Shown here in pieces: positions 19,121-60,453 of a stretch of DNA of 64,000 bases; positions within the stretch are counted from its first letter, which is position 1, and every line of letters starts with the position of its first letter. Source of the DNA: a bacterium (GTDB lineage: Bacteria; UBA8248); assembly GCA_965204535.1 (NCBI GenBank), contig OZ241996.1, positions 672,001-736,000 on the forward strand, in the 5' to 3' direction. The notes beneath the pieces are model-generated. The model searched no databases. It worked only from the letters and a program-made list of their open reading frames with translations, and was not told the DNA's origin. The position numbers and the translations under genes were made by a program.

Positions 19121-20709
19121 CGCGCGGGCGCCGCGGGCGCAGGAAGCGGCTCCCACCATTTCTCGACGCCCAGATCCTCAGCGATCACGCCGGCGGCGTT
19201 GTAGCCGGGCGCCCCGTTCAGACCGCCCCCCTGGCAACTCGAACTGCACAGATAGAACCCCTCCAGAGGCGTCCGCATGCCGGAGAGCAGGGGATGGGGC
19301 CTGTTGACCCCCAGCTGTTCGGGAATGTAGGCCCCCATGCGCACGCCGCCGCGGATCATGTTCTTGTTCCCGCGCTCCACGTCGAGCGGGGTGTAGAGCT
19401 TCGCCGCGCGGACGTTGTCCGGCGTGAGGTTCGGAGCGTAGCCCCGCCACACGTCCACGAGGCGTTCGGTGTATTCCTCTTTGATTTCATCCCACTTCCG
19501 GGGGCCGCCGTCCTTGAGTTCATAGGGCGCGCCCGGCCACCAGAAGGCGACGTGGCCGCCTGGGGGCGCATAGGAGGGGTCGTGCTGGCTGTTGCATGAA
19601 CCGTTGCCCATGGGGCGCGACGGGATGAGGCCGTTTCTGCGCTCTTCGGTGTTTTCGGCCATCTCCTCGCCGGAATCCGCGCCGAAGATGATGTTGTAGG
19701 CCCGGCCCACGTCCGGGTCGAAGTTCTCTGCGGTATATCGCGGGGGTTCGGCCAGGGCGAGATGCAGCGTACTCAGGGAATGGAAGCCCCAGTCCCAGTT
19801 CCGCACCTTTTCGTTGACCTCATCGGGAAACGCGTCTTCTCCCGCCATTTTGATGGAAGCCGGCGCGTTGAGGCTTGAGGCGACGAATTGCGTCGCCGTC
19901 ATCTTCTCTCCGCCTTCGAGCATCACGCCCGTCGCGCGGCCGTTCTCCCGTATCACCTCGCGCACGTGGCTGCTTCTCAGGACGACGCCTCCGTTGTTGA
20001 TGACGATGCGCTCGAGCGCCAGGGGCAGTTGGATGGCGCCCCCCACCGGGAGGCCGAGCGTCGTGTGGGTGGAGAACAGGCTCGGCAGGAAGATACCCGT
20101 CCCCGGCGCGTTCTCCACCGTAATGGCGTGAGAGAACAAGAAGAACAAGGCCCGCATTTTGGGATGCTCGAAATGCGATTCGATGGCCTCGAAAATCGAC
20201 ATTTTCGCAAAACTCAGAATCTCGCGTCCCGCGTCGCCCTCCATCCGGGAGACGATTTCCTCCGGCGGGAGCGGCGGGTGAAAGAGGAAACTGCGCATGA
20301 GCGGGGCGAGTTCCACGGCGAATCGCCGGTGGAGGTAGACGTAAGATTCGGCGTCTTTTTGAGAGAATCGTGAGATGGACGCGGCGCTTTTTTCCGCGTC
20401 GCGGTGCAGCAGAACCGCCGTGCCGTCACGATACAGTGCGGCGTGCTGCACGTCGGGCGTGAGCCACTTGAACCCGTGTTTGTCGAGTTCCAGGTCCTTG
20501 ACGATTGGAAAATCGTCCAGACCGATGAAGAAATTCGCGTGCATGTTCGATTGGTAGCCGGGCAGCAGGAATTCCTGGGTGCTCGAGCCGCCGCCGATTT
20601 CGGGTTCGCTGTCCAGAACGGCGACTTTCAGCCCCGCCCGGGCGAGATACGCCGCGCACACCAGGCCGTTATGCCCCGCACCGATCACGATTCCGTCGAA
20701 TTGCGCCAT
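19117..20709 (-). CDS. Phytoene dehydrogenase-like NAD(P)/FAD-dependent oxidoreductase
   Basis: IGAGHNGLV.AAYLARAG, TPLD.E, TP.EG.YLC..S...GGG..GAPG.NAA. Confidence 0.9.
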   Translation of the reverse strand: MAQFDGIVIGAGHNGLVCAAYLARAGLKVAVLDSEPEIGGGSSTQEFLLPGYQSNMHANFFIGLDDFPIVKDLELDKHGFKWLTPDVQHAALYRDGTAVLLHRDAEKSAASISRFSQKDAESYVYLHRRFAVELAPLMRSFLFHPPLPPEEIVSRMEGDAGREILSFAKMSIFEAIESHFEHPKMRALFFLFSHAITVENAPGTGIFLPSLFSTHTTLGLPVGGAIQLPLALERIVINNGGVVLRSSHVREVIRENGRATGVMLEGGEKMTATQFVASSLNAPASIKMAGEDAFPDEVNEKVRNWDWGFHSLSTLHLALAEPPRYTAENFDPDVGRAYNIIFGADSGEEMAENTEERRNGLIPSRPMGNGSCNSQHDPSYAPPGGHVAFWWPGAPYELKDGGPRKWDEIKEEYTERLVDVWRGYAPNLTPDNVRAAKLYTPLDVERGNKNMIRGGVRMGAYIPEQLGVNRPHPLLSGMRTPLEGFYLCSSSCQGGGLNGAPGYNAAGVIAEDLGVEKWWEPLPAPAAPAR

Positions 20710-20829
20710 CGGATTCTCTCCTCAAGATAGTGGATGCAGAATCCCCAGCTTATCGAATCGGGGATGAAAGGGCAAAAAGGCGGACGAAGAACACCCCGCC
20801 GCAGGGGACCGCTGAAAGCGCCCTGATGA

Positions 20830-21670
20830 GGGGTTGTTGAAAAGTCCTCTTTGCCAGGGGATAAAGGACAGCCCCTCCTCGGGGCTGTCCTGCCCCCCCT
20901 ACCCCCCTTGTCAGACTTGTTTGCTATCCAGCAGAGAGGATTCACTCCCCCCCTTGGGGCTGTTGAAAAAGCCCTGATGAACGCGGGTTTTGCGCGACCG
21001 AGGAGGGGCGGTTTTGTAGGGGCCGCATACATGCGGCCCTTGTCTTGTAGTGGGCAAAAAAAAATCAGGGTCGCATATATGCGACCCCTACATACAAACA
21101 AATTTTCCTCTCGGGGGTTTTTCAACAACCTCCCCTTGAGGGGGCTGTTGAAAAAGTCCCTGCACACCCCTCGAATGGCGACTGTAGGGGCGGCCCCCCG
21201 TGGCCGCCCGTCGGTCGTATTCATCCAGATACAGCAAGGGCACGGGGGCCTCGGACAGGCACGGGGGCCTGTCCCTACGGTGAACAATTCGATGATCGGG
21301 ATTTCTTCCCCACCGGAGGGTTTTTCAACAGACCCCTCAAGGGGGGAGTGAATCCTCTCTGCTGAATTGCAAACAAGTTTGAAGGGGGGAGTGAATGTAA
21401 AATTCTCCTCGGTGGAGGGAGCAACCCCCCCTACCCCCCCTGACAAGGGGGGGTAGGGGGGGTTGGTTTTGGGGCGAGGTATCCGTAGGGACAGGTCGCG
21501 ACCTCGGACAGGCACAGGGGCCTGTCCCTACAGAAACCACGTAAATCGCAACGACCCGCAGGGGCGGCTTTCCATCGTCATTCCGGGGTTCGGCGGTACA
21601 TAGAAGGGTCGTCATCCGCATATATGTCGGACATATATGACCGCGCAGGAATGACGGCGGTGGTCGATTC
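20830..21670. repeat. Nested repeat cluster (two TGTTGAAAAA-MITEs inside a ~45-bp inverted repeat; several REP classes)
   Basis: Outer IR at 20911-20955 / 21339-21382; MITEs at 20956-21132 and 21141-21335. Confidence 0.85.
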
Positions 21671-21687
21671 CGACCGAAACGGCTTTT

Positions 21688-21900
21688 CTGGAGTCCGATA
21701 ATTGCTATTATCAGAAAATATAACATCTCTCACGGCCATGTCAAGCGCAATTCCGGGGTCCCCGAAGGGGTTTCGGAGGCCGTTTTGCGTCTTTTTTCGC
21801 TTATATTTCGCTTATTTGCGGCCCGAATGCGCCCCGAATCGGGTTTTTCGGCGGAAAACGGGGTTTCTGGGGGCCGTTAATAGCAATTAGCGGTCACCAG
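21688..21900. promoter_or_regulatory. Candidate invertible promoter switch 1 bounded by inverted dif-like recombination sites
   Basis: Left site GAGTCCGATAA-TTGCTA-TTATCAGAAAA (21691-21718); right site GGGGCCGTTAA-TAGCAA-TTAGCGGTCAC (21870-21897); spacers are reverse complements. Confidence 0.75.
21717..21744 (-). promoter_or_regulatory. Sigma70-type promoter inside switch 1, facing away from the lipoprotein gene
   Basis: Minus strand reads TTGACA-N16-TATATT with TGn extended -10. Confidence 0.7.
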
Positions 21901-22125
21901 GCCGGGAAAGGTGGACGCATACCGCAGGAATCCGCCTCTCGCGGAAAGACTCACCACCGGCCCGGAGCATGAAAGGGTTCAAGTCCGCCGCGTTTCAGGC
22001 GGCTCGAGATACGAATCAGTTTGTGAAGGCCCGAAATGAAAGCTGACGAAAGGAGGTTAATCGGAGAAAGCCGGAAATTCACTGAAGATCCCTTTTTCTA
22101 CTGTGTATTCAGGAGGACTCACTAA

Positions 22126-24831
22126 ATGATGTTCAAAGAGAAATCGATAAACAAGTTCTACGCTTTCGCGCTGGCGGCGCTGTTCGCGCTGACGCTGGCC
22201 GGCTGCGGCGGTGGCGGCGGCGGCAGTGCTGCTGCGCCGGACCCTGACCCGCCAGCGATGCCGACAGCTTATGAGGTGGCGGTTGATGCAATCGCGGCGG
22301 CCGAGACGGCGGAAGCCGCACAGGCGGCGGTCGCCACGGCGGTGGCCGCCGGCATCACAGGCGCGCAGCTCCAGGACCTGAACACGAAGGTCGCCGCGCG
22401 CGTGGCGGCCCTGGCCATGATGGCTCGGGTCGATGCGCAGAAAATGGCGATGATGGCCGCGGCCGGCAATGTCGACACGTCCGACCTGTCGGACGCGGAT
22501 GCCATCGCCGCCGCGAAAACCGCCATCGCCGCGCTCAAGGCGGCGATCGCCGCCGCGGCCGACGTCGACGACACGTCGATGTACGACGCGCAGGTGACAG
22601 CCGCCGAGACAGCCGTGGCGGCCGCGCAGAGCGCTCTCGACCATGCGGCCCAGACGATGGCGCTCACGAGTGCCGTCGAGGCCCTCCAGGCAATCGACCT
22701 GACCGACCTGTCGACGCAGGAGAAGATCGACGCCGCCCAGGGCGCCATCGACGCGCTTCAGACGGCGCTGGATGACGCGACGGAGCTGAGCGCCGCCGAG
22801 AAGACCGAGGCCATGACCGAACTGGGGACCGCCGATCGGACCGTGATGACCGCGCAGGGCAGGTACGACACCGCAGCCCAGAAGAAGGCGCTCGCCGATG
22901 CCGTTGCCGCCCTTGCCGCTCTCAACCTCGACAACCTGATGACGCAGGCGCAGATCGACGCGGCCGTGGCAGCCATCACCGGGGTTGATCTGGCTCTGGA
23001 GTCGGCGACCAATCTGACCGACGCCGAGAAGCTCGACGCCACCGTCGACGTGACGGTGGCCCAGCGGAAGGTGGACCGTGCGGAGACGGCTCTCGCCGAG
23101 AATGTCGGCCGGCAGCGCACGGCGCTGACGGAAGCCGGCACGGCCCTTGCCGACATCGACCTCGACGATCTGGACACGCAGGAAAAGATCGACGCGGCCG
23201 ATGCTGCCGTTGACGCGCTCAAGACGGCGCTGGCTGCGGCGACCCACCTGAGCGATTCCGAAAAGGCCACGTACCAGACCCAACTGGAGGCGGCCACGGA
23301 GACCGTGGGGGTGGCGCAGACCGGCATGGACCGCGACGGTCGCATGACGGCCCAGCGTACGGCGATCACGAGTGCCGTCACGATGGCCCGCACTGCGGTC
23401 GCGGGTGTGAGCGACGACTCGACCGATAGCGAGGTTGCTGCTGCGGACGCGGCGGTTGCCGCTCTCAAGAAGGCGATCGACGATGCGGTAGACCTTCCCG
23501 ACGGTGATACCGACGTTGCCAGCGCCAAGGGAACGCTCGCCACGCTCGAGCCGCAGCTGGCCGCTGCCAAGACGTCCCGCACGGCGGCGATGGCCGCTAA
23601 GCAAAAGGACGCGGACGCGGCCAATGCGAAACTCGGCAAGGATCTGCACGCGGCGCTGGGAGGGCCCGAAGCGGGTGGTAACGCGCTGGCCAACATTGAC
23701 GCTACCGCACTTGCCCTTTCGGCGGCAGGCCTCGTGATTGATGCCCCTGCAGGCGCGGGGAGTCTCGGAGCCACCGTTGACCCTGCTTCCGCAACACTCA
23801 AGGCCGGCGACCCCGCCGGAGCGTTGGGCGGCTGGTCGGGCATGGACTTTGCCCTTACCTCGGGTACTGGCACCTCGAGGGTCACCAACGAAGCCAGGGT
23901 CTACACGAACCAGGGTCCCGCAGACACGGAACCGTTCAGCGAGGCACATACTCTTATAGCGGCAGGCAGTCCAAATGCTGGTTCGTTGGAAGTAACCACC
24001 GCCAACATCGGTCTAGTCAGGGCAGATGCCTTCACGCACTCGGGAGAGCAAAATCACCCTGTACCCTCCAGGAGTACTGCAGTATTCGTCCGTGGAACGT
24101 ATGACGGTGCGCCAGGAGAATACAGTTGCCCATCCAGTTGCTCATCGACGAATGATGGTAGTGGCGCCCCGAGCGAGTTGGGCGGAACCTGGCATTTCAA
24201 GCCCGACGCGGGCGCGATGGTGTCCCGGCCCGATGCCCACTACCTGTACTTCGGCTGGTGGGTGAGCAAGGACAGTGACGGCAAGCCGACGGCGGCGAGT
24301 GCGTTCGCGAGTAGAGTTGGTACCGACCCCGGTAATAGCACTGATGGTCTCGACAATGCCGGAGACCTGACCGCAATAACCGGCTCGGCGACCTATGCCG
24401 GAAACGCCGTTGGAAAGTTCGCCATGGACAATCCGCTTGATGGCACGGGCAACGGCGGCCACTTCACGGCGGACGCCGAACTGACCGCCACGTTCAGTGG
24501 CACTAACCCCGGCGTGACCGGCACGATTGACAACTTCCGGCTGAACGACGGGTCCGAGGATCCGGGCTGGAGCGTGTCACTGGCCCGCGGTGCCTTGGGC
24601 ACTGCAGACGGATCAATCACGGCTCCTACGAATGACCCCACTGTCTGGTCGATCAACGGCAACAAGGCGCCGGCGTCCGGCACGTGGAGCGGCACCATGT
24701 ACGACGAAATGCCCGGAAACGCCCCGGACGGAGACGGCAGCAACATCCCGACCACGGTGACCGGAACCTTCTATTCCGAGTTCAGCACCATCGGCCGCAT
24801 GGTCGGTGCGTTCGGCGCGGAGAAGCAGTAG
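22126..24831 (+). CDS. Large surface lipoprotein: Ala-rich helical repeats plus C-terminal TbpB-like beta-barrel region
   Basis: AGGAGG RBS; lipobox LAGC followed by poly-Gly; C-terminus GSATYAG.AVGKFA...FTADAELTATF...VGAFGAEKQ. Confidence 0.85.
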   Translation: MMFKEKSINKFYAFALAALFALTLAGCGGGGGGSAAAPDPDPPAMPTAYEVAVDAIAAAETAEAAQAAVATAVAAGITGAQLQDLNTKVAARVAALAMMARVDAQKMAMMAAAGNVDTSDLSDADAIAAAKTAIAALKAAIAAAADVDDTSMYDAQVTAAETAVAAAQSALDHAAQTMALTSAVEALQAIDLTDLSTQEKIDAAQGAIDALQTALDDATELSAAEKTEAMTELGTADRTVMTAQGRYDTAAQKKALADAVAALAALNLDNLMTQAQIDAAVAAITGVDLALESATNLTDAEKLDATVDVTVAQRKVDRAETALAENVGRQRTALTEAGTALADIDLDDLDTQEKIDAADAAVDALKTALAAATHLSDSEKATYQTQLEAATETVGVAQTGMDRDGRMTAQRTAITSAVTMARTAVAGVSDDSTDSEVAAADAAVAALKKAIDDAVDLPDGDTDVASAKGTLATLEPQLAAAKTSRTAAMAAKQKDADAANAKLGKDLHAALGGPEAGGNALANIDATALALSAAGLVIDAPAGAGSLGATVDPASATLKAGDPAGALGGWSGMDFALTSGTGTSRVTNEARVYTNQGPADTEPFSEAHTLIAAGSPNAGSLEVTTANIGLVRADAFTHSGEQNHPVPSRSTAVFVRGTYDGAPGEYSCPSSCSSTNDGSGAPSELGGTWHFKPDAGAMVSRPDAHYLYFGWWVSKDSDGKPTAASAFASRVGTDPGNSTDGLDNAGDLTAITGSATYAGNAVGKFAMDNPLDGTGNGGHFTADAELTATFSGTNPGVTGTIDNFRLNDGSEDPGWSVSLARGALGTADGSITAPTNDPTVWSINGNKAPASGTWSGTMYDEMPGNAPDGDGSNIPTTVTGTFYSEFSTIGRMVGAFGAEKQ

Positions 24832-25134
24832 CAGCGAAGAGCAATGACGCCTTTCGCCTCGGGGCTTCACGGCCCCGGGGCCCAAGGCGATATGAGGAGA
24901 GCGAAAAGGGGGTTGCCCGTTGGTTGCTTCTCTCGTGAGAGCAAATTGTACCGCTCCCTGCTGTGAGTTTGAGTCCTCGAGCCGGGAACGGGAACAACGG
25001 GCGGCCCCTGTTTTCGCTTCATGCAGAAAGGCCGGCGCCCCGCTCGGCCGGGCCCCGGACCTCAGGGATTGTGTCGCGGCAACTCCCGCCTTCCGCCGGC
25101 CCTTCGCGGGGTGTCGGCCTTTTTTTCTTGAAAG

Positions 25135-26960
25135 GACAGCCCCTCCTCATCAGGGGATAAAAACAACCCCCCCTACCCCCCCTTGTCAGGGGGGTAAAAA
25201 CAAAAACCCCCCTGAAGCAGTGGGTGTACGATGGTTTTGTAGGTCGGACATATATGTCCGACATATATGCGACCCTGGTTTTTTCCCATTCCAACAATGG
25301 GCCGCATATATGCGGCCCCTACAACAACCGTCCCCTCCCTAATCGCGTGAGACCCTCTTTCATCGGAGCTTTTTCATACCCCCCTGTCAAGGGGGGGTAG
25401 GGGGGGTTATTCCCTCCACCAGGGAGAATCCTAAATTCACTCCCCCTTTCAGACTTGTTTGCTATTCAGCAGAGAGGATTCACTCCCCCCTTGAGGGGTT
25501 GTCCCCTCCTGCCGAAGTGAAAGAATCAACTCCCCCCTTGAGGGTCTGGCTTCCCGAGGGGAAAGCCAGACGAGGAAGCCGAACCGACAGGTGAAGGCTG
25601 ACTCGGTGGGGGGAGTTTTTGTCTGTGGCATGTCCCCCCACCACATCGGCCTTCGCATAAACCGCTCGGCCTCTGTCTGGCTTCCCGAGGGGAAAGCCCG
25701 ACCCCCTCAAGGGGGGAGTGAATATAAAATTCTTCTCGGTGGAATAAGACCCCCCCGACAAGGGGTTGTTGAAAAACCCTGCAATGACGGCAACGAGATT
25801 CCGGCCTGCCGAAGGGAGTGTAGGGGCCGCATATATGCGGCCCGGCGTTGGAAGGCAAAAAGGCCGGGTCGCATGTATGCGACCCCTACACACAAACAAA
25901 TTTTCCCTCGGCGAGGGGCTTTTTCAACAGACCCCGACAAGGGGGGTTACTGCCTTGCCGAAGGGAGTGTAGGTCGGACATATATATCCGACCTACACTC
26001 CGCCTCGTTCTTTCCGAGCAATCGGGCGGACACGTCGGTCCCGGACAACCACGGGGGGTTGTCCCTACGCCCCCGCGGACCCGTAGGGACAGGCCCCCGT
26101 GCCTGTCCGTGGCCCTCGCGCCTTTCCTGTATCGGGGTGAATACGACCGACGGGCGGCCACGGGGGGCCGCCCCTACAACTGCGGCGCGTAATCGCTGTA
26201 GGGACAGGTCGCGACCTGTCCCTACGGGGTGTCGCTTCCCCGGTCGGTTCGATTGCCCTCTCACTTGTTGAAAGGCAACCCCCCCTACCCCCCCTTGACA
26301 GGGGGGTAAGAAAGACCTCTCCCCCGACAAAAAAGGATCAACTCCCCCCTTGAGGGGGGAGTGAACATCAAAGGCGCGCGCTCAACCAAAATCGCTCCAC
26401 GGGGCTGTTGAAGAACCCCTATCCGCCTCATCCTGAGTAGCGGCCCCTCGACTTCGCTCGGGACAGGCTCCGCCGTTGCCCGACACCCCTCATCCTGAGT
26501 AGGCGCGTAAGCGCCGTATCAAAGGTCAAATGCGATTGATGAATGAGCGTTTGCTCTCGCCCAGCGCGAGGCGTTCGACTCCCCTCGCCCTTCGATACAA
26601 ACGCTCCTTTCTCAGTCGCGTCTGACCTTCGGCGGCTACTCAGGGTGAGGAATGAGGCGTTGGCGGTTTGCGGGGGTTACAGACGGGGCCTTTTCATACC
26701 CCCCTGTCAAGGGGGGGTAGGGGGGGTTGGTTTTCCCGTAGGGGCGGCCCCCCGTGGCCGCCCGCATCGAAGATATCCATTCCCGTGGTTGTCCTTCGTC
26801 AGGACAGGCACGGGGGCCTCGGACAGGCACGGGGGCCTCGGACAGGCACGGGGGCCTGTCCCTACTACGGATGCGATTCGGTTTTGTTCGTCATTCCGTC
26901 TTTCGCCGGAATGACGGGTGTTGTGATCTCTCCGGAAGGGTGTCGTAGGGGAGGCTTTCA
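25135..26960. repeat. ~1.8-kb non-coding mosaic of REP-like palindromes and MITEs
   Basis: At least five palindrome families; MITE 25762-25934 flanked by CGACAA direct repeats. Confidence 0.88.
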
Positions 26961-27397
26961 GGCCGGGAGCGCATTTGCCCGCATTTGGCGTTACCGGGCA
27001 TGCGTCCGCGCGGGGCAGGATGGGGCGCGCGAATCGGGAGGAGTTCCGTATGGATATGGGCCGGATGTATCTGGAAAGAGGAAAGCGAACGGGCCCGGCG
27101 TTTTCCGCGCGAGGGGCATTCCTGAAAAATGCGAGAAATATCGATAAATTAACGGGGTTTTCCCGTAAATTTCCGACTATGCAAATGGTTGTAATCAAAG
27201 GGGTTGTCATATGAATCTGAGCGTCCCGCACTCAGATATGGCGCAAAAAAAAAGTTTTCCGGCGCCCCCGCATTTGCCCGCAACTGCCCGCGTTTCCCCG
27301 CGCGGCGAACCCGTCCGCCCGGGCCGCCCGGCCCCGAATCGGGGCGGTTCGGCACCCCGCGGGAGCGGGCGTCCGGTTCATACGGGCGAGGCGAAGA

Positions 27398-57287: not shown

Positions 57288-58007
57288 ATGACCGCGTTTA
57301 AAGACGATACCGGCGCCCCGCTGGACGAGCGGCTGCGCCGGAGCATTGCGCTCTGGCGCGCGCGCCGAGGGATGAGTGCGAGGCGCTTCGGGGTGGGCGC
57401 GCTGGGGGTTCCCGGCTTCGTGGGCCTGCAGGCCCGGGGGCGGCCCCTGCGGGTCGACACGGCGGACCGGGTGCTCGCGTTCATGGGGTATCCGCCGCTG
57501 GGACCGCTCCTGCGGGCCGAGGTGGAGGCGTTTCTCGTGGTGAGCGGGACCAAGGTCTCGATCCTGGGCGAGGAGACCGTGGGGAATCCCTCCTTCGTGG
57601 GGAGGCTGCGCCGGGGCGCCTCGCCGTATCTCAAGACCTTCGACCGGGTGCGCGCCTGGATGGCGGCCAACGCGACGGGAGAGGAGATCCGCGCCATACG
57701 CGAGAGGCTCGCGGACTTGCCCGACCCGTTCGACGGGACGTGGGACGCCGCCGGGGAACCCGGGGCCGCGGGAGACGCCGATGAGCGCGCGAAGGAGAAC
57801 CACCTGAACACGCGGGAGGCGGCCGCCTGGCTCGGCCTCTCGCCCAAGACGCTGGAGCGCTACCGCGTGAGCGGAGAGGGGCCGGATTTTCTTCGCATCG
57901 GATACCGGGTGCGCTACCTGCTCGAAGACCTCGAGAAGTGGGCCTCCGCCCGGAGGTGGACTTCCACGTCCGAGGAGAGAGCCGCCCGGAGAAAGAAGAG
58001 GCGGTAG
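57288..58007 (+). CDS. Multi-HTH DNA-binding protein (two Cro-like repeats plus C-terminal excisionase/AlpA-like HTH)
   Basis: C-terminal LNTREAAAWLGLSPKTLERYR..GEGP.F...G.RVRY..EDL..W; two internal repeats of G...FV..L..G.......DRV.A(F/W)M. Confidence 0.75.
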   Translation: MTAFKDDTGAPLDERLRRSIALWRARRGMSARRFGVGALGVPGFVGLQARGRPLRVDTADRVLAFMGYPPLGPLLRAEVEAFLVVSGTKVSILGEETVGNPSFVGRLRRGASPYLKTFDRVRAWMAANATGEEIRAIRERLADLPDPFDGTWDAAGEPGAAGDADERAKENHLNTREAAAWLGLSPKTLERYRVSGEGPDFLRIGYRVRYLLEDLEKWASARRWTSTSEERAARRKKRR

Positions 58008-58036: not shown

Positions 58037-58273
58037 TCACAGGCCGTGGCGCAGCCTCGCCATCGCGGCCACGGCCGCCGAGTGCCCCCCCTCGCAGAGA
58101 TCCCCCAGGTACGCCGCTATCCCGGCGTCGGTCTCGGGGTTTCCCGAGCGCTCGAATCCCCTGAGCGCCGTCTCGTACGCCCGCCGCGTGTTCTCAGACA
58201 TCGAGGCCTTCGCCAGGTCGGCGGCCGCACGGGCCGGTCGGGCCGGCCTCCTCGTCAAAGCGATGTCCTGCAT
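58037..58273 (-). pseudogene. Truncated tyrosine recombinase (N-terminal core-binding domain only)
   Basis: ASMSENTRRAY..ALRGF...D..IAAYL..L...G.S resembles integrase/Cre N-terminal SAM-like domains; stops after 78 aa. Confidence 0.6.
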
Positions 58274-58449
58274 CGGGTCGGATGGTCTTGCCCCCGTCGT
58301 CATGCCGAGAAGCCAACCTTCCGGGTCGGCGGCCGTGTCCATTGCCGGGGCCGCTCGAGCGCCTCCTCGATTACCAAGTATGGACGACGGCGGGGAATTT
58401 CCACAAAAAAAGCCGTTTCGCAGGGGAATACCGGCGAAACGGCGGGTTT

Positions 58450-58661
58450 CTGGAGTCCGATAATTGTCGTTATCAGAAAATTTAACACCTCTCACGGCCA
58501 TGTCAAGCGCAATTCCGGGGTCCTCGGAGGGGTTTCGGGCGTCGTTTTGCGCCTTTTTTCGCTTATATTTCGCTCACTTGCGGCCCGAATGCCCTCCGAA
58601 ACGGGTTTTTGGGGGAAAACGGGGCTTCTGGTGTCCCATAACGACAATTAGCGGACTCCAG
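58450..58661. promoter_or_regulatory. Candidate invertible promoter switch 2 bounded by inverted dif-like recombination sites
   Basis: 24-bp IR with 1 mismatch (58450-58473 / 58638-58661); sites GAGTCCGATAA-TTGTCG-TTATCAGAAAA and GTGTCCCATAA-CGACAA-TTAGCGGACTC. Confidence 0.78.
58479..58506 (-). promoter_or_regulatory. Sigma70-type promoter inside switch 2, facing away from the lipoprotein gene
   Basis: Minus strand reads TTGACA-N16-TAAATT with TGn extended -10. Confidence 0.7.
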
Positions 58662-58920
58662 CCCGGGTTCGAGGTGGCGCATACCGCAGGGATTCTTGTC
58701 TCGCGGAACCACCGGCCCGGACTACGAGTCCGCAAGTCTACCGTATTTCGGGCTGCCCGGGATACGGCGAACCGGCAGTAGCGGTTTCCTCCAGGGGATC
58801 GCCCGGCACGTCCGCCGGGCGGTCCCTGGCGGGAGAAGTATGGCGAATATCAGGCGGATTCGTATTTTTTATTCCGCTCAGACAATTCCACCAGAGGTAC
58901 CAGAGGGAAGGACCCGGAAA

Positions 58921-60453
58921 ATGAAAATAAGACATCGCATGGAGAGGCTTGCAACCGGAGGCGGCATGGTCCGTCATCCGGAAGAGACCGGCAGAAGCCC
59001 TGGGCGGCCGGCAGGCCCGGGTTTATCGAAGGGCTCCTCCCGTCTTTTACAGGCTCAGGACAGGCCTGACGCGCCCAAGCGCTCACGCGACCGCTTCTCC
59101 TTCCTCATCCCCTGCTTCGCGCTGCTGCTTGTCACGCTCGCCGGTTGCGGCGGTGGCTCGTCTTCCCTCTCGGGCGCGCCGCCCATGGAACCCCCACCGC
59201 CGGTGCACGCGGTGGGCCTGCCCGACATGCACGACCTTTCCGGCTGGCTGACGGCCAACCCCGCCGGCACGGTCACCGTTCCCGCTGGCGAGCACCGCGA
59301 CGTGGGCGGGGTGCGCTTCTTCTGCCCTGCGGGCGGGGCGGACTGCGCGGTGACGGTGACCGCCGAGAACGGGACCGTCGCGGCGACCTCGACGGACGGC
59401 ATGGCCACCGCCATGTTGGCGCCGCCGCCGGTGCACGCGGTGGGCCTGCCCGACATGCACGACCTTTCCGGCTGGCTGACGGCCAACCCCGCCGGCACGG
59501 TCACCGTTCCCGCTGGCGAGCACCGCGACGTGGGCGGGGTGCGCTTCTCCTGCCCTGCGGGCGGGGCGGACTGCGCGGTGACGGTGACCGCCGAGGACGG
59601 GACCGTCACGGCGACCTCGACGGACGGCATGGCCTCCACGATGCCGGTGCCGCCGCATGACCGCTGGGAACATATTTATGACATAGCGGATACACTGCTC
59701 CAATCCAGCGACCACCTTCGTTATACCTTCAACTGGACCGGGCGGGGACAAAGCACAAGCGATCATGTGGTCAATAACTATTCGTGCACTGGATCGCGTT
59801 GCGTCAGCGATGAACGGGTGATTACCGTCGAGGACTTTCGGCATCCGGACAACAGGGTCCAGGTGGCCGTGCCGGCGGAGGACTTGGGATCGCAAGGCGG
59901 GTTTGACACTCTTACGGCCTCGGTCGACGTGGACCTTTCATTTCTCTTCGCGGAGACCACCCTCACGGAGTACCCTTCCTACGACACGTATGGCGTCTGG
60001 GGCCAATACGGTGCCTTACATTTGCAAGTTGTTGACGGACCAATGGCCGGCCAAGTCCAGGGCGTGCCGTTCACGGGCGACCTCAACTATGCAGTCGCGT
60101 TCGTCCTGGGCAATGCCACGGGTACCAACCCACAAGGCACGGGGAGTGCAACCTGGCGTGGCGTTGCCGAGGCCGTCTCGACCAGCACGTTCCAGCGGGG
60201 GCAAGGAACCGCGACACTCACCATCGCAGACCTGTCTCGACCGCGGGTTGGAGTTGACGTCGATATTCCCGGGTTTGCTATCGGCTCGCCCCGTTGGTCC
60301 GACATACCGCTGACGGACGGCCGGTTTGCGACCGGAACCGCCGGAACCGACCGTCTTGAAGGCGATTTCCACGGGCCCGCTCACTACGAAGCCTACGGCG
60401 TATTCGATACGGGCCCTTACGTGGGCGGGTTCGGAGCGAAACGGACCCAGTGA
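58921..60453 (+). CDS. Surface lipoprotein with a duplicated 76-aa domain and C-terminal TbpB-like beta-barrel region
   Basis: Lipobox LAGC followed by GGGSSS; GSATWRG...G.F.GP.H.EA.GVF...GGFGAKRTQ; start uncertain (58921 or 58966). Confidence 0.8.
   Translation: MKIRHRMERLATGGGMVRHPEETGRSPGRPAGPGLSKGSSRLLQAQDRPDAPKRSRDRFSFLIPCFALLLVTLAGCGGGSSSLSGAPPMEPPPPVHAVGLPDMHDLSGWLTANPAGTVTVPAGEHRDVGGVRFFCPAGGADCAVTVTAENGTVAATSTDGMATAMLAPPPVHAVGLPDMHDLSGWLTANPAGTVTVPAGEHRDVGGVRFSCPAGGADCAVTVTAEDGTVTATSTDGMASTMPVPPHDRWEHIYDIADTLLQSSDHLRYTFNWTGRGQSTSDHVVNNYSCTGSRCVSDERVITVEDFRHPDNRVQVAVPAEDLGSQGGFDTLTASVDVDLSFLFAETTLTEYPSYDTYGVWGQYGALHLQVVDGPMAGQVQGVPFTGDLNYAVAFVLGNATGTNPQGTGSATWRGVAEAVSTSTFQRGQGTATLTIADLSRPRVGVDVDIPGFAIGSPRWSDIPLTDGRFATGTAGTDRLEGDFHGPAHYEAYGVFDTGPYVGGFGAKRTQ
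59197..59652 (+). repeat. Intragenic tandem duplication, 228-nt period
   Basis: Near-identical copies start at 59197 and 59425. Confidence 0.92.

Follow-up and report, generated by a model that had tools for sequence, protein, structure and literature searches.

A predicted sigma-70-type promoter located upstream of a 901-aa lipoprotein gene lies between two inverted lox-like sites, and it is very probable that this segment is inverted by a Cre-like recombinase encoded elsewhere in the genome, which would switch the lipoprotein from OFF to ON. The locus was found in a 64,000-nt stretch of DNA (the window) that belongs to a 4.56-Mb genome of two contigs (G000; contigs C1 and C2), and it was compared with a set of 61 cassettes from this genome and its relatives. 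In the proposed mechanism, a recombinase tetramer would bind the four arms, whose consensus ends in CCGATAA, and exchange strands across the 6-bp spacer, so that only sites sharing a spacer would recombine well; each cassette would therefore mostly flip on itself. Enzyme produced from genes beside sister cassettes would act in trans on the window cassette.

Sites and predicted promoter of the window cassette

The features of the window are as follows (coordinates, strand, description).
20710..21674, no strand, repeat-rich intergenic region, where sister cassettes carry a recombinase gene
21675..21683, minus, 5' half of a terminator hairpin of the kind that most recombinase-linked cassettes have beyond the distal site
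21689..21720, plus, gene-distal lox-like site read from the sequence: 13-bp arm, spacer TTGCTA (21702-21707), 13-bp arm
21702..21886, no strand, putative invertible segment, 185 bp from spacer to spacer, OFF orientation as assembled
21717..21744, minus, predicted sigma-70-type promoter, -35 TTGACA and extended -10 TG-n-TATATT
21868..21899, plus, gene-proximal lox-like site, spacer TAGCAA (21881-21886), the reverse complement of the distal spacer
21887..22125, plus, conserved leader of ~240 nt, common to the lipoprotein cassettes
22111-22116, ribosome-binding site AGGAGG in the leader
22126..24831, plus, 901-aa lipoprotein: signal peptide, lipobox LAGC (Cys27), Gly linker, Ala-rich repeats, C-terminal beta-rich head
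about 58079-58404, minus, 5' remnant of a recombinase gene at the second window cassette
58451..58660, plus, second window cassette, spacers TTGTCG / CGACAA, OFF
58696-60453, lipobox-bearing ORF at the second window cassette

The original prediction described two inverted sites with 6-bp spacers spanning 185 bp, a leftward promoter directed away from the lipoprotein, and a 901-aa ORF starting at 22126. All three elements were recovered at the same positions. Inspection of the sequence gave the left core site (21691-21718) as GAGTCCGATAA-TTGCTA-TTATCAGAAAA and the right core site (21870-21897) as GGGGCCGTTAA-TAGCAA-TTAGCGGTCAC, with spacers that are exact reverse complements. In a repeat search the two sites formed a 23-nt inverted repeat with 87% complementarity. 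The site motif occurred five times in the window, compared with a mean of 0.15 over 100 shuffles, and an arm profile derived from the family's sites gave the gene-distal site one of its highest scores. The window cassette, at C1:693699 of G000, has the arrangement of an inverton, namely a promoter between inverted recombination sites upstream of the target gene.

The promoter scan placed TTGACA at 21744 on the minus strand, followed after 16 nt by TG-n-TATATT ending at 21717, with 11/12 matches; an 18-nt register (TATTTT) of the same promoter also scored, and the -10 element overlaps the inner recombinase arm of the distal site. This was the only promoter-like site within 20700-22200, a range in which no plus-strand promoter-like site was found, including the leader between cassette and gene. 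Inversion would leave the -10 ending 255 bp before the lipoprotein ATG. The TTGACA hexamer was found in 60/61 cassettes of G000 and its relatives. A riboswitch or ribozyme in the leader was not supported, as no Rfam match came near its gathering score.

Cassette family, orientation and spacers

A search for similar site pairs in the genome had been suggested with the original prediction. Scanning G000 for TAA-N6-TTA (separation 30-1200 bp, with the first 1.2 kb of each contig appended to that contig) yielded 180 matches, from which 16 pairs with related spacers were obtained. All of these were inverted and 168-180 bp apart, and direct-repeat pairs were absent (0 of 16). A 17th cassette bridges the two ends of contig C1, and a promoter-anchored pattern with 25 matches included the same 17 cassettes. 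Fifteen are directed away from the downstream gene and two toward it. Thirteen of the 17 precede the common leader and a paralogous lipoprotein start (one frameshifted, one being the C1-junction copy). Judging from the translations, the other four stand ahead of, respectively, a further lipobox protein (window 58696), a secreted protein with repeats that is followed by a lipoprotein, a large protein resembling an autotransporter, and an enzyme, apparently cytoplasmic, accompanied by a transporter. At the first of these, a 239-aa HTH_17 protein is encoded at window 57288-58007, upstream of the recombinase remnant, and HTH_17-like genes also flank several recombinase-linked cassettes.

Among same-genus genomes, 15/22 matched the cassette or its leader. 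The 61-cassette set was gathered from G000 and its relatives regardless of spacer match, with 6/61 members found via the recombinase. Six loci with the leader end and no cassette (L066, L074, L076 and L078-L080) lie outside the set, as does L081, and L065/L070 are non-orthologous to C2:2619186. The L081 cassette (L081:3590-3790; genome G032 of another family of the class, also L102) has a matched 7-bp core, CTTCTAC / GTAGAAG, and lies ~480 bp from a family recombinase. A metagenome scan with a 22-nt core motif returned no matches.

The first and last bases of contig C1 both fall within the 6-bp spacer of one gene-proximal site, with a 4-nt overlap. The join of its ends is a true local one, because it is syntenic with the related genome G002; the contig may have broken exactly at the crossover site owing to reads with mixed orientations. 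The possibility that C1 arose as a circle by excision between a pair of cassettes with the same spacer was rejected, as both of its ends are adjacent in G002.

Both orientations were present across the family. Of the 61 cassettes, 53 were OFF, seven ON and one without a call. Opposite orientations also occurred at the orthologous locus of a sister cassette: L059 in G002 is in the ON state and its ortholog in G000, C2:2207108, in the OFF state; their upstream flanks are 97% identical, and in the alignment the cassette alone is inverted, both loci being without a recombinase. Similarly, L055 (OFF) and C2:2391245 (ON) are alike in spacer, flanks and target, and the inversion is what distinguishes them. 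In both comparisons the outer arms remained with the flanks and the inner part alone was inverted. These observations, together with the matched spacers described below, support the earlier proposal of an ON/OFF promoter switch captured in its OFF state.

An alternative is that the inverted sites delimit a small mobile element, or form the stem that closes an RNA, and that insertion rather than reversible flipping produced the orientation differences. The cassette-plus-gene units are indeed patchy between relatives and have dispersed repeats at their flanks. Nevertheless, this alternative is extremely unlikely: the outer arms stay with the flanks while the inner part inverts, left-right covariation lies within the 6-bp core and not along a stem, the moving unit comprises leader and gene as well as cassette, and G000 has just one clearly unpaired family site, a lone degenerate copy. 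That site, at C2:561251, is followed by the leader and an apparent autotransporter barrel remnant, and sits downstream of the lipoprotein pair of an ON cassette.

The spacers were matched within cassettes although they varied between loci, with exact matches of the 6-bp spacers in 60/61 cassettes. The 17 cassettes of G000 carry 13 spacer types, and all 17 were matched within the pair, whereas 100,000 shuffles gave a permutation mean of 1.47 and never more than 9; in G002, 15/16 were matched against a permutation mean of 2.56. The sole mismatch among the 61, at one end position of L057 (G002 C1:3371413 region), possibly represents a spacer change caught ahead of homogenisation. Left-right identity at the six spacer positions was 0.98-1.0, compared with 0.38-0.87 expected, and arm positions showed little or no left-right excess, so covariation was restricted to the spacer (59 cassettes; L069 and L119, both within the 61, were omitted for overlapping motif matches). 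Efficient Cre recombination requires matching spacers, according to the accessible part of PMC11260471, and the core-only covariation therefore fits a strand-exchange region. Such concerted change confined to the core would be the trace expected of repeated inversion, or of selection that keeps inversion possible.

Spacers also changed on both sides at orthologous loci. Six ortholog sets showed this pattern (C2:856309 vs L047/L062/L067/L071; C2:2828332 vs L048; C2:2944376 vs L049/L073; C2:2207108 vs L059; L065 vs L070; L051 vs L072), and four of the six are without a local recombinase, indicating that cassettes lacking an adjacent enzyme gene keep being homogenised. The closest paralog of the window unit, C2:1054828, is 88% identical over 3.6 kb, and its spacer differs from that of the window cassette at two positions, at both sites. 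The window unit itself is missing at this locus in four relatives (G008, G011, G012 and G016), and G002 has a different island there, so that the cassette-plus-gene unit is a recent arrival.

Between loci, the spacer is more variable than nearly all other parts of its cassette, with a mean pairwise identity of 0.71 vs 0.91, and inner 6-nt windows as variable as the spacer numbered 1/168 in G000 and 4/168 in G002. Spacers are not unique, however: four types are used twice in G000, and the 16 cassettes of G002 carry eight types.

The linked Cre-like recombinase and comparison with known systems

Tyrosine recombinase matches in G000 numbered 42, eight of which are divergently oriented just beyond the distal site of a cassette. 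Accordingly, 8/17 cassettes stand beside an intact recombinase gene and two beside a 5' remnant, and across the whole set a full or remnant Cre-like gene adjoins 41/61 cassettes. The family recombinases are 311-354 aa long, with an N-terminal region. The best 17 PDB matches of the linked recombinase were all Cre or Tre (E 5e-13 to 1e-11), followed by archaeal XerA-type proteins (E 1e-5 and 8e-5). The catalytic R, K, H, R, W and Y of Cre-type enzymes, as listed in the accessible part of PMC10250229, are intact, with R195, K220, H294, R297, W320 and Y329 invariant in 8/8 aligned homologues. The cassette sites likewise have the Cre-type form, in which palindromic arms of ~13 bp enclose an asymmetric core close to the gene: the arms are imperfect, TAA/TTA is invariant, the 6-bp core is variable, and the sites lie about 50-250 bp from the recombinase reading frame. 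On this adjacency, the Cre-like enzyme is likely to pair with the cassette sites.

The original prediction had compared the sites with tyrosine recombinase core sites, citing XerCD/dif. The enzyme genes linked to the family do encode tyrosine recombinases, and a Cre-like enzyme is likelier than XerCD, given the PDB matches, model scores far below cut-off (41.7 vs 335 bits for XerC, 37.1 vs 330 bits for XerD) and the arms of the dif candidate. It could still be argued that housekeeping XerC/XerD inverts the cassettes through dif-like sites and that the Cre-like neighbours are passengers, since the two best Xer-like matches of G000 lie at C1:1352004 and C1:116980 and the left arm of the dif candidate C1:1394756 ends in CCGATAA, as do the cassette arms. 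We regard this as very unlikely. The distinct right arm of the candidate (TTATGTAAAG type) is absent from all cassette sites; the arms of the cassettes show pseudo-symmetry, and on their profile the candidate reaches a score of 1.8, compared with 23-38 for cassette sites; and the 41/61 linkage to Cre-like genes, 6/61 having been found via the recombinase, also argues against passengers. The dif candidate is near the GC-skew maximum of C1 (1,408,994). As the skew minimum is on C2, the two contigs appear to belong to a single chromosome, though C1 closes on itself.

The direction of transcription in the OFF state was considered as well. For the majority of recombinase-linked cassettes, transcription in the OFF state would stop at a terminator immediately past the distal site, and a separate promoter would serve the recombinase. 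A hairpin and T-run lie directly beyond the distal site in 9/17 G000 cassettes, and a separate promoter-like motif precedes 6/8 intact recombinase genes; the two recombinases of a second subtype had neither the hairpin/T-run nor such a motif by the criteria applied. A toggle in which the OFF state transcribes the recombinase was ruled out for the main subtype by these counts. OFF is thus likely a true dead end rather than a way of switching on the recombinase.

Beside the window cassette there is no recombinase gene, and the repeat-rich stretch 20710..21674 stands in its place. Here the 3' half and T-run of the terminator are replaced by a dispersed repeat, and one junction, with the repeat in place of the recombinase and half of the terminator, is common to the window copy and five other such orphans. 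A further terminator-like site lies to the left at 21088-21067. Dense mosaics of short palindromic dispersed repeats occur on both sides of the unit (window 20780-21674 and 24900-27000), and these repeats may mediate its spread between intergenic sites.

Because no recombinase adjoins it, the window cassette would have to be flipped in trans. One rival reading holds that the family is a real switch and the window copy a locked relic that stays OFF, with the lipoprotein silent or served by another promoter. Besides the missing recombinase and the truncated terminator, this reading draws on the finding that 19/20 scored recombinase-less cassettes are OFF. Contigs of six sequencing runs (X1-X5, X7) showed no opposite-strand joint of the window cassette among the matches listed, although contigs drop rare variants and so give no evidence either way; a contig of X3 crosses the right site without a single difference, in the orientation of the assembly. 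The sites and promoter of the window copy are nevertheless intact and its spacers matched, its spacer has changed at two positions on both sites relative to C2:1054828, and its leader is without a plus-strand promoter-like site. Furthermore, the orphan orthologs L059 and C2:2207108 differ in orientation, and orphan cassettes show two-sided spacer changes. The two-sided spacer changes are the main evidence that orphans such as the window cassette are still acted on in trans, and a locked relic appears unlikely. Inversion in trans by a Cre-like enzyme remains the preferred reading.

Homologues of the recombinase occur across many phyla. At recombinase loci without a TAA-type pair, a matched inverted pair was found within 1.2 kb upstream in 1/26 cases, compared with 1/121 control windows, and a wide cross-phylum spread of the switch was not confirmed. 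The single case, L135 in a Binatia-titled record, carries an inverted pair CCTT-N6-AAGG with other arms and a matched core, ~135-395 bp upstream of a homologous recombinase; no sigma-70 consensus was found inside this pair.

In gut bacteria and pathogens, the inversion of promoters is an established phenomenon. In E. coli fimS (FimB/FimE) and Proteus mrp, a short promoter segment is inverted by an adjacent tyrosine recombinase and a surface gene is switched. The G000 cassettes resemble fimS as short promoter-bearing segments that would switch a surface gene, but they form a multi-copy family rather than one locus, and the linked recombinase is far below the FimB/FimE model cut-off (22.9 vs 222 bits, NF007371). 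The Mpi enzyme of the Bacteroides capsule loci is a serine recombinase. With these loci and with the tyrosine-recombinase outer-surface loci of Bacteroides, G000 shares dispersed putatively invertible promoters for surface genes. It differs in its Cre-like enzyme, its lox-like sites with locus-specific cores, its Slam-type lipoprotein targets and its lineage, the closest named relatives being titled Nitrospinota. The accessible parts of PMC12632263, PMC11602134 and PMC11892184 describe many dispersed invertible promoters for surface structures in Bacteroides, flipped locally or in trans.

A further close likeness is with Cre/loxP, Vika/vox, Nigri/nox, Panto/pox and their relatives: Cre gives the best PDB matches, the R-K-H-R-W-Y set includes the Trp, 13-bp imperfect arms surround an asymmetric core, the sites lie next to the gene, and matched spacers are needed (PMC11260471, accessible part). 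Cre resolves genome dimers of phage P1, as stated in the accessible part of PMC8138268. In G000, by contrast, there are two inverted sites around a promoter, the arrangement occurs 17 times in the chromosome with spacers that vary, and it is accompanied by eight intact recombinase paralogs.

Predicted surface lipoprotein targets and host

The 901-aa target is predicted to be a surface lipoprotein with an HpuA/fHbp/TbpB-like head, of the type exported as Slam/T11SS cargo. No Pfam family matched it at E<=0.1, and among its atlas neighbours TbpB_B_D was annotated on 11-99% of members. The NCBIfam model invert_tail was rejected, as it scored 19.9 bits against a cut-off of 37 and matched the signal region only. 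A structural model of the head (residues 500-901, 20 homologues, pLDDT 71.5) gave HpuA, fHbp, hemophilin and TbpB as its top Foldseek matches (E 4e-6 to 1e-4, or to 1e-3 over the HpuA/fHbp/TbpB-type matches), with modest TM values by target length (0.2-0.5) and 10-15% identity to the solved HpuA/fHbp/TbpB-type proteins. The lipoprotein signal is thus combined with a predicted C-terminal eight-stranded barrel of the TbpB/fHbp type, and according to the accessible part of PMC12282271 T11SS cargo is defined by such barrels, some predicted cargo having long alpha-helical repeat regions ahead of the handle. One Slam is present in G000 (PF04575 at C2:795287, 104 bits), and its gene adjoins the lipoprotein paralog C2:793644-794372. 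The G000 proteins share with HpuA, fHbp, TbpB and hemophilin the lipobox, the Gly linker, the predicted handle and C-terminal beta-barrel, and a Slam in the genome. Unlike known cargo, they are only 10-15% identical, have no Pfam match, lie outside Proteobacteria and comprise about 20 paralogous heads in this one genome.

In the full mechanism, the population would vary which members of this Slam-exported lipoprotein repertoire, and of a few other genes, are displayed. The use of heterospecific lox sites with differing spacers is an insulation trick of genetic engineers. A broader and more tentative reading, to which we give somewhat less than even weight, is a natural switchboard of this kind, in which one pool of Cre-like enzyme serves up to 17 promoters, fast-diverging spacers act as addresses, and Slam-lipoproteins are displayed combinatorially in a sponge symbiont. 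Such addresses would keep each switch with its own partner and prevent scrambling of the chromosome. Selection for insulation is only suggested, because some addresses are shared between cassettes (13 types in 17 cassettes; 8 in 16). The organism is likely sponge-associated, since run X4, labelled a sponge metagenome, contains pieces similar to the window.

A literature search, with most subscription journals outside it, found no account of a Cre-type enzyme flipping promoters in this way nor, for this lineage or for sponge symbionts, any description of switches of this kind; the accessible main text of PMC11602134 mentions neither Nitrospin- nor sponge. If the switch is real, Cre-type recombinases would gain a natural role in phase variation, and one enzyme family would run many switches through spacer-based insulation. 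It would also supply new pairs of recombinase and site, together with 20-odd spacers as a naturally occurring library, and long reads that already exist would allow surface variation to be tested in a symbiont that is uncultured.

Individual members of the lipoprotein family showed disruptions that may be genuine decay or errors of assembly. Behind the C2:376855 cassette, the first lipoprotein carries a frameshift just past the Gly-linker codons, giving an 81-aa product, and the L048 lipoprotein, left out of the alignment for this reason, has an in-frame stop. In G020 and G013, loci L079 and L080 contain the leader's 3' part together with clusters of lipoprotein paralogs and no cassette, indicating that the gene family also exists in an unswitched form.
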